From NCBI GenBank assembly GCA_965206595.1, contig OZ242214.1, positions 6,560,001-6,624,000 on the forward strand: DNA of 64,000 nucleotides. The letters run 5' to 3'. Below, piece by piece: positions 6,353-25,603 of the stretch. This DNA is from Candidatus Latescibacterota bacterium (GTDB lineage: Bacteria > Latescibacterota > UBA2968 > UBA8231). Position numbers and translations under genes: made by a program. Position 1 is the first letter of the stretch. Each line of letters starts with the position of its first letter. A model generated the notes under the pieces. The model did no database searches, was not told where the DNA came from, and worked only from the letters and a program-made list of their open reading frames with translations.

Positions 6353-7408
6353 CTACTGGAACTTCAGGTAATGCGGCGGCGACAGGCCGACGGCGCGGCC
6401 GACGATGCAGGCCGCCTCCACGCCGGCCTGCTGCAGGGCTTCGACCGCGGCCGCGGCCTGGGCCCCGGGAACCGCGGCGAACAGGCCGCCGCTGGTCTGC
6501 GGGTCGACCAGGATCTCGCCCTGCCTGTTCGGCAGCTCCTTCTCGTACAGGGCGGCTTCCCCGACCTGCGCCCGGTTCCCGGCGTTGGCCCCGGTGGTGA
6601 CGCCGCGCTCGTACATCTCCAGCGCTTCCGGCAGTACCGGCACCGAGTCGACTTCGATTTCGATGGTAACCCCGGAGCCTTTGGCCATCTCGAGGGCGTG
6701 CCCGGCGAGCCCGAAGCCGGTGATGTCGGTCGCCGCGTGCACGTCGAACCGGGCCAGGGTCTCGGCCGCGGCCCTGTTGAGATCGGTCAGCACTGCCAGG
6801 GTCCGCTCCAGGGCTTCCCGGGAAAGCAGGCCTTTCAGGTTGGCGTTGAAGATCACGCCGCTGCCGATCGGCTTGGTCAGGATCAGCGCGTCCCCGGGAC
6901 GGGCCCCGGCGTTGCGCCAGTACCTGTCAGGGTGCACGACCCCGGTGACCGAGAGCCCGAACTTCGGCTCGTCGTCGTTCGTGGTGTGGCCCCCGGCCAG
7001 CACCGCCCCCGCCTCGGTGATCTTGCTCAGAGCCCCTTCGACGATGCCGTGCAGCACCTCGGGGCCGAGGTCCTCCTCGGGAAACCCGATCAGGTTGAGG
7101 CAGGCCACCGGCCGCCCCCCCATGGCGTAGACGTCGCTCAGGGAGTTGGCGGCGCCGATCTGGCCGAAGGTGAACGGGTCGTCGACCGGCGGCGTGATGA
7201 AGTCCGCGGTGACGACGATGGCGGTGTCGTCGCCGAGGCGGTAGACGCCGGCGTCGTCGCTGGTCTCGAATCCGACCAGCAGGTTCGGGTCCGACTTGCG
7301 CGGCAGGCCGGCCAACAGTTTCTCGAGCCCGACCGGGCTCGCCTTGGCCGCTCACCCGCAGGTCTTGGCGAGACTCGTCAGGGTCTTCTCTTTTGATTGC
7401 AGCGCCAT
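6353..7408 (-). CDS. selD: Selenide, water dikinase (selenophosphate synthetase; SenC role), selenocysteine-containing, 351 aa
   Basis: ATG at 7408 gives MALQSKEKTLTSLAKTCG-(TGA 7354-7352)-AAKASP, in frame with the 320-aa ORF (DDAGVY, DFITP, ANSLSDVYAMGG, GGHT, TDITGFGLAGH, DPQTSGGL). The TGA sits at the catalytic GU/CxxK position. Confidence 0.95.
7324..7341 (-). promoter_or_regulatory. SECIS-like hairpin of selD
   Basis: On the mRNA CGAGCCC-GGUC-GGGCUCG: perfect 7-bp stem; G-led loop begins 17 nt after the UGA. Confidence 0.75.
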
Positions 7409-22492: not shown

Positions 22493-23214
22493 ATCGCGAT
22501 TCCATCCTGTTCCTCGCCGTTCTCCTGTTCTTCGCCGCGGCCAACGCCTACCTGTTCGCCGCCGGCAAGCTCAGCCCCGACTGGACCGGCTTCGGGATAA
22601 TCGTCGCCGCCGGCCTGACCCTGGCGCTCTACAGCTTCCTCTACCGCGACAACCCCTTCTTCAAGCTCGCCGAGCACGTCTTCGTCGGCGTCGCCGCGGC
22701 CTACGTGTTCGGCCAGACCTGGTACCCGACCATCTACGGCGAGGTGATCGACAAGCTCACCGGGCTGGGTGAAGCCGGCGCCTGGGAGGGAAACGCCTGG
22801 CTCGTGCTGTTCCCGACCGCGCTCGGGATCCTGATGCTGACCCGGTTCAGCACCCGCATCGGCTGGACCAGCCGCATCGCCTTCGGGTTCATCTTCGGCC
22901 TGGGGGCCGGGTTCACGATCCCGGCCTACATCTCGACGTTCATCCTGAAACAGGTGGAACCGACCCTGCAGCCGATCACCCTGTCCTGGGCCGGGCTCGA
23001 CCTGTTCATCATCCTCGTCGGCGTCGTTTCGGTGCTGGTCTACTTCTTCTTCTCCGTCGAGCACCGCGGCGCCGTCGGCATGGTCTCGAAGCTGGGGATC
23101 TGGGTGCTGATGATCTCTTTCGGCGCCTCCTTCGGGTACACGATCATGGCGCGGCTGTCGCTGCTTATCGGGCGTGTGAGGTTCCTTCTCGGCGACTGGC
23201 TGAACCTGATGTAG
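22489..23214 (+). CDS. Integral membrane protein of the GlmL-like operon
   Basis: YSFLYRDNPFFKLAEHVFVG, YFFFS, FGASFGYTIMARLSLLIGR; about 7 TM; ATGA overlap. Confidence 0.82.
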   Translation: MNRDSILFLAVLLFFAAANAYLFAAGKLSPDWTGFGIIVAAGLTLALYSFLYRDNPFFKLAEHVFVGVAAAYVFGQTWYPTIYGEVIDKLTGLGEAGAWEGNAWLVLFPTALGILMLTRFSTRIGWTSRIAFGFIFGLGAGFTIPAYISTFILKQVEPTLQPITLSWAGLDLFIILVGVVSVLVYFFFSVEHRGAVGMVSKLGIWVLMISFGASFGYTIMARLSLLIGRVRFLLGDWLNLM

Positions 23215-23218
23215 GAGG

Positions 23219-24127
23219 TTGATCTTGGAGTATCGACAGCTGGGAAAAAACGGTCCGCAGATTCCCGCGATCGCCCTCGGAGCCTGGCCGTTCGGCGGCG
23301 CCATGGGGGCCGTCGCAGAAGAGATGGCCGTCGCCACCGTGCGTGCCGCCATCGACCGCGGCATCACCATGGTCGACACCGCCCAGTCGTACCGCGCCAG
23401 CGAACGCATCGTCGGCCGCGCCCTCGCCGGCGGCTACCGCGAGCGCTGCTTCCTGGCGACCAAGGTGAGCGGCGACTTCTCGCCGCCGGCGATCCGCGCC
23501 GCCATGGAGAACAGCCTGCGGCAGCTCGACGTCGACTACGTCGACCTCTACCAGATCCACGGCTGGAACCCCGCCTACCCGGTGGATGCCAGCATGGAGG
23601 CGATGGAGCAGCTGCGCCTCGAGGGGAAGACCCGCTATATCGGCGTTTCCAACTACAACGCCGGGCAGATGGCCCAGGCGATGGAGACCGCCCCCTTTCA
23701 ATCGGTGCAGCCCGGTTACAACCTGCTCGCCCGCGGTATCGAGGCGGAGGACATCCCGTTCTGCGTCGAGCACGGCATCGGCATCCTGGCGTACAGCCCC
23801 CTGGGGCAGGGATTGTTGACCGGCAGGTACCGGCCGGGCCACCGCTTCGCCGCCGACGATTACCGCTCGGAGCGGGCCCAGTTCCAGGGGGAGCAGTTCG
23901 CGCGCACCGTCGCGGCGACCGACCGCCTGGCGGAGCTCGCCGCGGACAAGGGACTGTCGCTGGTGCAGCTGGCGATCGCCTGGATCCTGAGGCTGCCGGC
24001 GATCAGCACGGTCCTGGTCGGCGCCAAGAACCCCGGTCAGCTCGACGACCACCTCGGCGCCGTCGGGGTCCGTTTCAGCGACGACGAGCTCGAGGCGATC
24101 GACGCGGTCCTCGCCGACGCCGGGTAG
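23219..24127 (+). CDS. Aldo/keto reductase
   Basis: DTAQSY, LATK, DYVDLYQIH, IGVSNY, YSPLGQGLLTG. Confidence 0.92.
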   Translation: MILEYRQLGKNGPQIPAIALGAWPFGGAMGAVAEEMAVATVRAAIDRGITMVDTAQSYRASERIVGRALAGGYRERCFLATKVSGDFSPPAIRAAMENSLRQLDVDYVDLYQIHGWNPAYPVDASMEAMEQLRLEGKTRYIGVSNYNAGQMAQAMETAPFQSVQPGYNLLARGIEAEDIPFCVEHGIGILAYSPLGQGLLTGRYRPGHRFAADDYRSERAQFQGEQFARTVAATDRLAELAADKGLSLVQLAIAWILRLPAISTVLVGAKNPGQLDDHLGAVGVRFSDDELEAIDAVLADAG

Positions 24128-24130
24128 CCG

Positions 24131-25081
24131 GTGGCAGCGCCCGAACTCTCCCGCCCTTTCGCGAGCACATCCAGGGTCGTTGTCGGCCGCGACGCAGGCC
24201 TTCCCGTCGAGATGGCCTGCGCCGACAACGGCAACCTTTCCGCGGACTACACGCTGCTGCTGCTGCACGGCCTCTTCGACCACAAGGGTACCTGGGAGCT
24301 GATGGAGCCCTTTCTCGGCGAGCGTTTCAGAACGGTCGCCGTCGACCTCGTCGGCTTCGGGGAGAGCAGCAGGCCGCGCTTCCGGTCCCTGCCCGAGAGC
24401 GAGCGGTACTGCCTGGACCGGCTGGCTGCCTACGTCGGAGAGCTCATCCGCGCTCTCGAGCTCGACCGCCTCGTCCTCGTCGGCAACTCCCTCGGCGGGG
24501 CCATCGCCCTGCGGCTTGCCTGTGCCGATCCGCAGGAGCGTCCCTGGGCGGCCGGGCTGGACCTGCGCGGACTTGTGCTGATCTCCGCTGTCGGGTACCC
24601 GCAGCCGCTGCCGGGATTCGTGCCGCTCCTCGCTGGAAAACCGGGTGCCCTTTTGTTGAACCCCACCCTGCAGCGGCTGGCGGTGGCCAGCGGCCTTGTG
24701 CGGCGGTTCGCCGCATCGACCTATTACCGGATCTTTTACGATCCCCGCCGGATCCCTGAGCGGCTGGTCGACCGGGCGGTCGAGTACTTCGCCATGCCCG
24801 GCACCCCGTTCGCGTACCGGATGACGGTGCGCAACCTGACTCCGCCCGACATCGACACCTTTCCGGGCAAGTACGCCGAAATGTCGCTGCCCGCCCTGAT
24901 CCTCTGGGGACAGCAGGACCGCATCGTGCCCCCCCTCAACGCGCTCCGCTTCGAAACGGATCTGGCGGCGGCGAAACTGCACGTTTTCGACGACTGCGGG
25001 CACGCCCCGCACCTCGAATACCCGGAGGGAACGGCAGTCGCGATCCGCGACTGGATCCGCAACAGCGTGAATACGGACTGA
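24131..25081 (+). CDS. Alpha/beta hydrolase
   Basis: LLHGL, DLVGFGES, GNSLGG nucleophile elbow, WGQQD, CGHAPH. Confidence 0.9.
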   Translation: MAAPELSRPFASTSRVVVGRDAGLPVEMACADNGNLSADYTLLLLHGLFDHKGTWELMEPFLGERFRTVAVDLVGFGESSRPRFRSLPESERYCLDRLAAYVGELIRALELDRLVLVGNSLGGAIALRLACADPQERPWAAGLDLRGLVLISAVGYPQPLPGFVPLLAGKPGALLLNPTLQRLAVASGLVRRFAASTYYRIFYDPRRIPERLVDRAVEYFAMPGTPFAYRMTVRNLTPPDIDTFPGKYAEMSLPALILWGQQDRIVPPLNALRFETDLAAAKLHVFDDCGHAPHLEYPEGTAVAIRDWIRNSVNTD

Positions 25082-25088
25082 AGCACTC

Positions 25089-25484
25089 GTGACCAGCAGC
25101 CAAGACCTGTGCAACATCGAGGAGGACGGCAGGCGCTTCCGTCTCTTCTTCGGAATCCTGCTCTGCTGCTTCGCCCTCGGCTTCACCGCCCTGGTCACCG
25201 TGACCGACAGCCCCCTGCCGCTGCGCGCTGTCGTCTTCCTGCCGCTCTGGGTGGGCATCCTGTGCCTGCTGCAGGCCCACGGTTCGACCTGAGTGCTTCT
25301 CGCGGCGCGTGGTGCACGCGCTACCGCGGGAGGAACCGAGCCGATTCCGGACCGGGAGCTGATCGATAGGCTGCGTCGAAAAGCGGGCCGCCTCCATTTG
25401 CAGGCAATGCTGGCGGCCTTCGCGGCGACCATCCTGCTGTTGCTCGCCACCCTGTTCATTGCTTTGCGCCTGCCCGCGCTCTGA
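25089..25484 (+). CDS. Small membrane protein with in-frame TGA (candidate selenoprotein, 131 aa, Sec68)
   Basis: 67-aa and 63-aa ORFs abut in the same frame across TGA 25290-25292 (LLQAHGST-U-VLLAARG); strong hairpin follows. Confidence 0.7.
25298..25331 (+). promoter_or_regulatory. SECIS-like hairpin
   Basis: UCUCGCG/GCGCGUG-GUG-CACGCGC/UAC/CGCGGGA: two stacked stems with a 3-nt bulge; apical GGU 18 nt after the UGA. Confidence 0.65.
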
Positions 25485-25603
25485 ATCCGGACACCGATTC
25501 GGAACCCGGGGCGGGTCATCGGGGCCCGGAGCAGTAGAACCAGCCGTCGGCAAACGATCTCCGCCCCTGCTTCCAGGAACCTGCCGCCGCGAAAAGGAGA
25601 GCC

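Follow-up and report, generated by a model that had tools for sequence, protein, structure and literature searches.

The window analysed here is a stretch of 64,000 nucleotides from a Candidatus Latescibacterota genome, and all positions are given within it. On its plus strand, a GTG at 25089 opens a 67-codon reading frame that runs to a TGA at 25290-25292, after which 63 further in-frame codons lead to a second TGA at 25482-25484. Reading through the internal TGA gives a product of 131 residues with the junction QAHGST-U-VLLAARG. A preliminary description of this DNA had reported two contiguous, in-frame reading frames parted solely by a TGA and a joined product of 131 aa with three transmembrane (TM) helices. 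The sequence and its translation agreed with the former, and an AlphaFold2 model with three long helices agreed with the latter. The following features were located:

6458..7381, minus strand: selD (selenophosphate synthetase), which has an in-frame TGA of its own (7352-7354) and a hairpin with loop GGUC; it served as the reference for the SECIS.
24131..25081, plus strand: alpha/beta-fold hydrolase gene (Abhydrolase_1/6), whose stop lies 7 nt before the start of the putative selenoprotein gene.
25089..25484, plus strand: putative complete selenoprotein gene, with a GTG start, 131 sense codons including UGA-68, and a terminal TGA; product predicted to have three TM helices.
25113..25142, plus strand: conserved N-terminal motif N9-I-x-x-x-G...R18 (family consensus N-I-G-P-R-E-R-R-K-R; N9 and R18 invariant).
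25290..25292, plus strand: in-frame TGA, predicted Sec68, in the alignment column that otherwise holds an invariant Cys (139/139 members have Cys or TGA there; in frame in 80/80 loci found by a DNA pattern).
25296..25333, plus strand: SECIS-like hairpin, with a lower stem (25296-25305 / 25324-25333) specific to this genome.
About 25305-25321, plus strand: conserved upper hairpin over codons 73-78, with the Gly75 codon GGU (25311-25313) at +19..+21 from the TGA, in or at the apical loop.

Conserved motifs are kept on both sides of the internal TGA, with Q62-A-x-x-x-T before it and V-x-L-A-A-R-G75, G82 and D88 after it. In a within-genus comparison, both halves of the gene showed a similar excess of third-position substitutions. 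Rfam at its gathering thresholds gave no match anywhere in the 64-kb window, selD included, and ARAGORN found no tRNA in it.

The presence of the protein in other genomes was investigated with profile and six-frame searches, and it was found to belong to a large, unnamed family of membrane proteins of about 120-135 aa. The six-frame search of 61 related genomes returned the protein in 20, one of which (L042) was a false match, leaving 19 true relatives. A single frame spans both halves in 19/19, and the critical column holds TGA in seven, Cys in 12 and nothing else. In the profile search of 5.8 billion proteins, 8000 candidates were scored, of which 211 were full-length homologues at E ≤ 0.001, all of them labelled "hypothetical" and lacking a precomputed Pfam domain. 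An alignment of 139 members was built from the 19 relatives and 120 listed hits among these 211 homologues. Its critical column is Cys in 132 members and TGA in seven (139/139), as the preliminary description had stated of the homologues, and N9, R18 and G75 are likewise invariant. A Cys-form profile searched against 1.84 billion cluster representatives (50% identity) matched 2483 at E ≤ 0.001 and 939 at E ≤ 1e-10; the best 150 of the 2483 were all stand-alone proteins of about 104-215 aa. Metagenome contigs supplied 66 Cys-form loci.

The preliminary description had also proposed a redox or metal-binding pair formed by Cys8 and Sec68. Residue 8 is Cys in 8/139 aligned members and Ser in a genome of the same genus, and the pair was rejected; the conserved N-terminal feature is N9-I-G...R18, not Cys8.

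A single-protein search for related loci in genome contigs returned none, and DNA patterns were used instead. A degenerate pattern specific for the TGA form found at least 119 matching stretches in GTDB species-representative genomes. We examined 80 of these loci (two, L109 and L115, in genomes flagged as unpublished), and all 80 were in-frame members with an intact, conserved C-terminal half. Judged by record titles, they fall under at least 13 phylum labels of NCBI: Gemmatimonadota 24, Acidobacteriota 18, Methylomirabilota 10, Chloroflexota 9, Rokuibacteriota 4, Binatota 3, Latescibacterota 2 and several singletons. Within the phylum of the window, the family was present in 28/168 genomes, and TGA occupies the column in eight of these 28, members of five genera and two families. 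Public gene calls contain about 20 clusters of 62-65-aa N-terminal halves ending in ...QAREKT at the column, and eight clusters of 63-aa C-terminal halves starting at codon 69. These clusters are gene calls cut at the TGA; in NCBI records, halves of this kind go by "hypothetical protein". A FastTree tree of 157 rows (83 Sec, 74 Cys; every row 100 aa or longer) required at least 16 changes between the Sec and Cys states, compared with about 52 when labels were shuffled, a count that is rough because the alignment is short. The low number of changes relative to shuffled labels indicates that clades of Sec forms persist and that switches have happened repeatedly.

The window's genome contains selA, selB, selD and tRNA-Sec, all above cut-off (tRNA-Sec at 71.6 bits). 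Among 40 Sec-form genomes drawn from the 80, selA exceeded its curated cut-off in 39. In the window's phylum, it was found in 131/168 genomes, including 28/28 carriers of the family. A family-level sample of 151 genomes around one Acidobacteriota carrier had selA in 143 and the family in 55, with 30 Sec-form matches in 28 genomes, 26 Cys forms and one undecided match (L303). All 28 Sec-form genomes of this sample have selA, and 4/4 selA-negative carriers of the family have Cys forms, which fits the prediction, yet four genomes is a small number. Since selA is nearly universal in both broadly sampled lineages (131/168 and 143/151), its co-occurrence with the family is a weak test there. Genomes flagged as unpublished within these counts are G220, G239, G224, G314, G332 and G345. 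The preliminary description had raised a restriction of TGA forms to genomes with Sec machinery, and the presence of selA in 39/40 and 28/28 Sec-form genomes is in line with it.

Folding of the RNA downstream of the internal TGA was examined with RNAfold. The hairpin of the window comprises a 10-bp lower stem, a 5-7-bp upper stem and a GUGCA/GUG loop, and it starts 4 nt past the TGA. In selD of the same genome (TGA 7354-7352, minus strand), the loop is GGUC with GGU at +18..+20, and an fdhA-like gene at another place in the genome has the loop GGUCU with GGU at +19..+21. The spacing from UGA to GGU at 25290 therefore equals that of the fdhA-like gene and is one nucleotide longer than that of selD. 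The geometry given in the preliminary description was right in placing GGU after 18 nt, against 17 nt in selD, and off by one in starting the hairpin 5 nt after the TGA. The distance was judged SECIS-like by the criteria of the bSECISearch model. Taken by itself, the hairpin of the window is within chance for GC-rich DNA (z = −1.34 against shuffles, with 17/200 folding equally well), and it is the comparative evidence that exceeds chance.

For this comparison, 85 Sec forms (the 80 pattern loci and five phylum loci) were placed in an ungapped alignment and set against 78 Cys forms (the 66 metagenome loci and 12 of the 20 phylum genomes). The stem in Sec forms is made of codons 73-74 (GCG CGC) and codons 76-78 around the Gly75 codon, and it can pair in at least three registers. 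With the relatedness of the sequences ignored, as in all Sec-versus-Cys hairpin statistics given here, the mean fold energy over +10..+33 was −10.2 kcal/mol in Sec forms (n = 85) versus −7.0 (n = 66) and −7.4 kcal/mol (n = 12) in the two sets of Cys forms (Mann-Whitney p = 4.5e-13), at GC contents of 0.65 and 0.67, respectively. On the same footing, a hairpin of 5 bp or more was found in 81/85 Sec forms versus 44/78 Cys forms, codon 73 was GCG in 78/85 versus 48/78, and the third position of codon 73 could pair with the first of codon 77 in 82/85 (GC 76, AU 4, GU 2; three unpaired) versus 49/78. That 44/78 Cys forms fold as well means that part of the structure comes incidentally from the use of GC-rich codons for A-A-R-G-x-R, and the excess in Sec over Cys forms points to selection on the RNA.

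In the commonest register, 86% of cells were paired, three pairs showed double changes, and 0/500 shuffles attained the observed covariation score. Some compensatory changes thus occur in the hairpin, the covariation of which had been suggested as a check in the preliminary description, with the caveat that register slides of ±2 pair nearly equally well. The RNAalifold consensus was a 3-bp helix at −1.9 kcal/mol, weak because the GC-repeat stem pairs in three or more registers. The Gly75 codon in the 85 Sec forms is GGU in 37, GGC in 24, GGG in 22 and GGA in two, so the loop U is not conserved. The likeness to fdhF/selD-type bacterial SECIS elements, including those of the genome's own selD and fdhA-like genes, lies in a coding-region hairpin just 3' of the UGA with a loop GG(U) 18-21 nt after it. 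Unlike those elements, most members have only a 5-7-bp GC stem and a 3-5-nt loop, with several registers. RNA and protein constraints overlap here because the hairpin is made from codons of the invariant protein motif. In the mechanism that we propose, SelB with Sec-tRNA(Sec) would recognize the short GC-rich hairpin of codons 73-78 (A-R-G-x-R-x), and the apical loop with the codon GGN of the invariant Gly75, 19-21 nt past the UGA, would lead the ribosome to insert Sec without terminating. In the gene of the window, the 10-bp lower stem would lengthen this hairpin.

Residue 77 differs between the two forms, being Arg in 78/85 Sec forms and Cys in 43/78 and Arg in 31/78 Cys forms. The preference of Sec forms for Arg77 may reflect the SECIS stem, in which CGC pairs with GCG of codon 73; alternatively, a Cys68/Cys77 pair may have been made dispensable by Sec. 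An independent-contrast test of Sec/Arg77 against Cys/Cys77 gave p of about 0.5; with five supported contrasts, it has little power and does not establish the association as a set of separate events.

Taken together, these data support the view that 25089-25484 truly encodes a selenoprotein, a membrane protein whose family is new and apparently undescribed; we assign this view a probability of about 0.88. Several other explanations for the internal TGA were weighed. Were the TGA a nonsense mutation in a gene of the Cys family, the sole product would be a truncated, non-functional protein of 67 aa. Gene callers and NCBI annotation do present each half as a short hypothetical protein in its own right, and the hairpin alone is statistically unexceptional. 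Such decay is nevertheless extremely improbable given the identical TGA column in at least 119 species genomes, the intact and conserved downstream frame in all 80 loci examined, the conservation of G75 and other C-terminal motifs, and the third-position bias of substitutions in the C-terminal half. The roughly 16 Sec/Cys changes on the 157-row tree, against about 52 with shuffled labels, and the persistent Sec clades also argue against it. A true stop followed by a separate gene from GTG 25293, with two small membrane peptides that assemble, would be compatible with the 63-aa reading frame that gene callers do call there and with codon 69 being GTG or ATG in the window and in 50/85 Sec forms. 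However, codon 69 is a non-canonical start (ATC, GTA, GTC, GTT or ATT) in the other 35/85, and a Shine-Dalgarno-like core precedes it in just 15/85. What joins the halves is in every case a single TGA, in frame and at the column of the invariant Cys; the halves never occurred as separate genes in the loci examined (their occurrence as independent genes was what the preliminary description had named as contrary to its proposal); and the Sec forms are associated with selA. We regard a split gene as very improbable.

Reading of the UGA as a standard amino acid, whether by a near-cognate tRNA for Trp, Cys or Arg or under a reassigned code, is hardly credible either, even if, in principle, read-through might be promoted by a hairpin downstream of a stop codon. 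TGA terminates both the gene itself (25482-25484) and neighbouring genes, so a reassigned code is excluded. In every case, the residue replaced is Cys, which is chemically analogous to Sec; the genome holds the full Sec machinery; and the position of the hairpin and its G-rich loop match the genome's own selD and fdhA-like genes. A variant compatible with the main Sec reading is that inefficient Sec insertion gives two outputs, the full-length selenoprotein and a 67-aa two-helix product, in a ratio set by selenium supply. Termination competes with UGA-Sec decoding in bacteria, and in the AlphaFold2 model, the 67-aa product is a complete two-TM hairpin. Its function is doubtful because the invariant Cys/Sec and G75 are missing from it, and we consider a dual output unlikely.

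The architecture of the Sec-containing protein was modelled with AlphaFold2 from 121 sequences (mean pLDDT 93.8, pTM 0.85). The model contains long helices at residues 12-38, 43-65 and 89-127, a short helix at 69-74 and a beta-hairpin at 76-85. Mean numbers of Lys plus Arg were 4.0 for the N-terminus, 0.8 for loop 1, 5.1 for loop 2 (66-98) and 0.1 for the C-terminal tail. By this distribution, the N-terminus, the loop 66-98 and Sec68 are probably on the cytoplasmic side, in agreement with the same-side placement of the N-terminus and Sec in the preliminary description. From a cytoplasmic N-terminus, TM1 would thus run outward and TM2 inward, placing Sec68 at the cytoplasmic end of TM2; the short helix and beta-hairpin would follow, and TM3 would lead out again. 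By analogy with small membrane proteins in which a two-helix hairpin is directly followed by one conserved Cys (YgaP-like/DUF2892), we tentatively suggest, as a possibility rather than an expectation, that the lone Sec/Cys could act as nucleophile or ligand in a protein that is anchored in the membrane and carries or senses sulfur or selenium species or a soft metal(loid). Structural searches gave no closer pointer: Foldseek found no match in the PDB at E ≤ 0.001, a profile search of PDB sequences gave zero hits at E ≤ 10, and a wide VIA-align search reached a best Z of 7.5 (TMEM45A, an Mrp subunit and designed helical bundles), which is background for helical proteins. The ESM Atlas, queried with the natural Cys form P0003, returned unnamed clusters only, and a homodimer prediction on the Cys-form alignment scored 0.01, a value that carries no weight here.

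The family resembles PF11127 (YgaP-like TM / DUF2892), as seen in 15 members of PF11127 from the phylum, in being a small membrane protein with N-x-G-x-x-x-R-x-x-R-x-x-x-G, a two-helix hairpin and a Cys directly after helix 2. It differs in the context of the Cys, T-[C/U]-[VI]-x-L-A-A-R-G versus G-[FW]-C-x-L-Y in PF11127, and in an added beta-hairpin and third TM helix. At the PF11127 gathering score of 25.3 bits, the window protein had no hit, and one of the 19 members gave a sub-threshold E of 0.029; the window's own genome had no PF11127 match above cut-off. An hhalign comparison of the family with PF11127 aligned the N-terminal motif alone (24 columns, probability 9%, E 0.0036), and membership in PF11127 does not follow from so short an alignment at that probability. 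Sec forms of DUF2892 are not known to us, and a literature search for selenoproteins with YgaP or DUF2892 found none.

Novelty was assessed against model libraries and published lists of selenoproteins. No Pfam or NCBIfam model matched the family (19 members). Table 1 of a 2026 review (PMC13188914) lists 119 prokaryotic selenoprotein families or subfamilies with model accessions. The membrane families given there include the MerT-like family (PF02411, putative mercuric transport), the YeeE/YedE thiosulfate transporter (PF04143), the SO_0444 Cu/Zn efflux transporter (NF033936) and the ABC permease SaoP (NF040733). These four resemble the new family in being membrane proteins with Sec in place of a conserved Cys and with Cys homologues, in which the replaced Cys is thought to contact a sulfur species or soft metal, and they were predicted by the same comparative logic. 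The new family differs from them in size and fold (131 aa, three TM helices) and has a single Sec, with no partner motif of the CxxU/UxxC type. When 19 members were run through hmmscan against Pfam and NCBIfam, none of the models for these four families appeared at E ≤ 1, nor did any other Pfam, NCBIfam or TIGRFAM accession from Table 1, whose cd- and PTHR-type identifiers lie outside those libraries. None of the 119 listed families corresponds to the new one, and the accessible part of the deep-Sep report (PMC12013277) describes nine new families with no membrane protein of such kind. The statement in the preliminary description that the protein is not among described families thus held against Pfam, NCBIfam and the 119-family table of the review. 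Literature searches on membrane selenoproteins, on groundwater and deep-Sep, and on selenoproteins of Gemmatimonad/Acidobacteri lineages found no description, and a prior listing as an unvalidated candidate is possible.

Since annotation splits the Sec forms into two "hypothetical proteins", they are absent from selenoproteome counts, which affects those of Gemmatimonadota, Acidobacteriota, Methylomirabilota, Chloroflexota and others. A curated family model would correct hundreds of gene calls. To our knowledge, few membrane-embedded selenoproteins have been recognized, and a single Sec at the membrane face would mean that bacteria of soil and groundwater use selenium in a way not yet explored. 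Programs that predict SECIS elements could usefully be tested on this family, whose very short SECIS overlaps a conserved protein motif. A broader picture joins these elements. The locus would represent an unrecognized, widespread membrane selenoprotein family (at least 119 species and 13 phylum labels, mostly lineages of soil and groundwater), with a lone Sec at the cytoplasmic face. The family would be a three-helix offshoot of YgaP-like/DUF2892 proteins acting as a selenol relay for sulfur or selenium species or a soft metal, with a minimal SECIS embedded in the A-A-R-G-x-R codons, so that motif and recoding signal co-evolved. In such a scheme, that co-evolution could lie behind the alternation of Arg77, in Sec forms, with Cys77, in over half of the Cys forms. 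As a whole, this combination is speculative, and we doubt that every part of it holds.

Gene neighbourhoods were compared among loci of different lineages. No neighbour conserved across phyla was found in the loci compared; TolC/HlyD-like genes lie upstream in Pyrinomonadaceae-type loci, and neighbours encoding RRM proteins were also seen in other lineages. Because the neighbours differ between phyla, the context gives no function. The hydrolase at 24131..25081 matched no specific NCBIfam model above cut-off. An alpha/beta hydrolase gene lies upstream on the same strand in 18/28 loci of the window's phylum versus 5/146 loci elsewhere, and it is a probable operon partner in that phylum only.

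Two further genes of the same genome carry an in-frame TGA, one within the window and one elsewhere in the genome:

6458-7381, minus strand: selD, a selenoprotein gene, with the in-frame TGA at 7352-7354 (junction KTCG-U-AAK)
G000:C1:2575331-2576068, outside the window: fdhA-like molybdopterin oxidoreductase gene (L291), with an in-frame TGA (junction CSRA-U-HAP)

The selD UGA is followed on its 3' side by a hairpin with a GGUC loop, and a distance of 18 kb separates selD from the candidate gene. The hairpin of the fdhA-like gene has a GGUCU loop with its GGU at +19 to +21, the same UGA-to-GGU spacing as in the candidate gene.

We also compared the residue encoded by family codon 77 between the Sec and Cys forms:

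25317-25319: family codon 77

This residue was Arg in 78 of the 85 Sec forms, whereas among the Cys forms it was Cys in 43/78 and Arg in 31/78. UGC occurred at codon 77 in seven Sec forms, and in four of these codon 73 was GCA, which yields an A-U pair. The difference at codon 77 between the two forms may be due to a constraint on the RNA or to protein chemistry. The JGI names given to three of the Cys forms (P0068, P0158, and P0052) were inconsistent and included "cytochrome c-type biogenesis protein CcmE", "membrane protein required for beta-lactamase induction", and "uncharacterized membrane protein"; none of the models searched supported these names. Two genomes, G199 (L310 and L323) and G218 (L316 and L324), each encoded two Sec-form copies of the family.

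The surroundings of the candidate gene include the following:

24131-25081, plus strand: alpha/beta-fold hydrolase without a specific family, ending 7 nt before the selenoprotein start
23165-25519, minus strand: 784-aa open frame, antisense to three real genes

The pairing of hydrolase and selenoprotein genes was found at 18 of the 28 loci from the phylum and was rare outside it. At Pyrinomonadaceae-type loci (L086, L095, L097, L110, L111, L116, L120, L126, L128, and related loci), two genes precede the family gene on the same strand, one a TolC-like outer-membrane efflux gene (Pfam OEP) and the other HlyD-like, an arrangement that probably reflects lineage synteny. The 784-aa frame is a high-GC artefact. 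Clustering across loci was also seen for antisense frames of the family.
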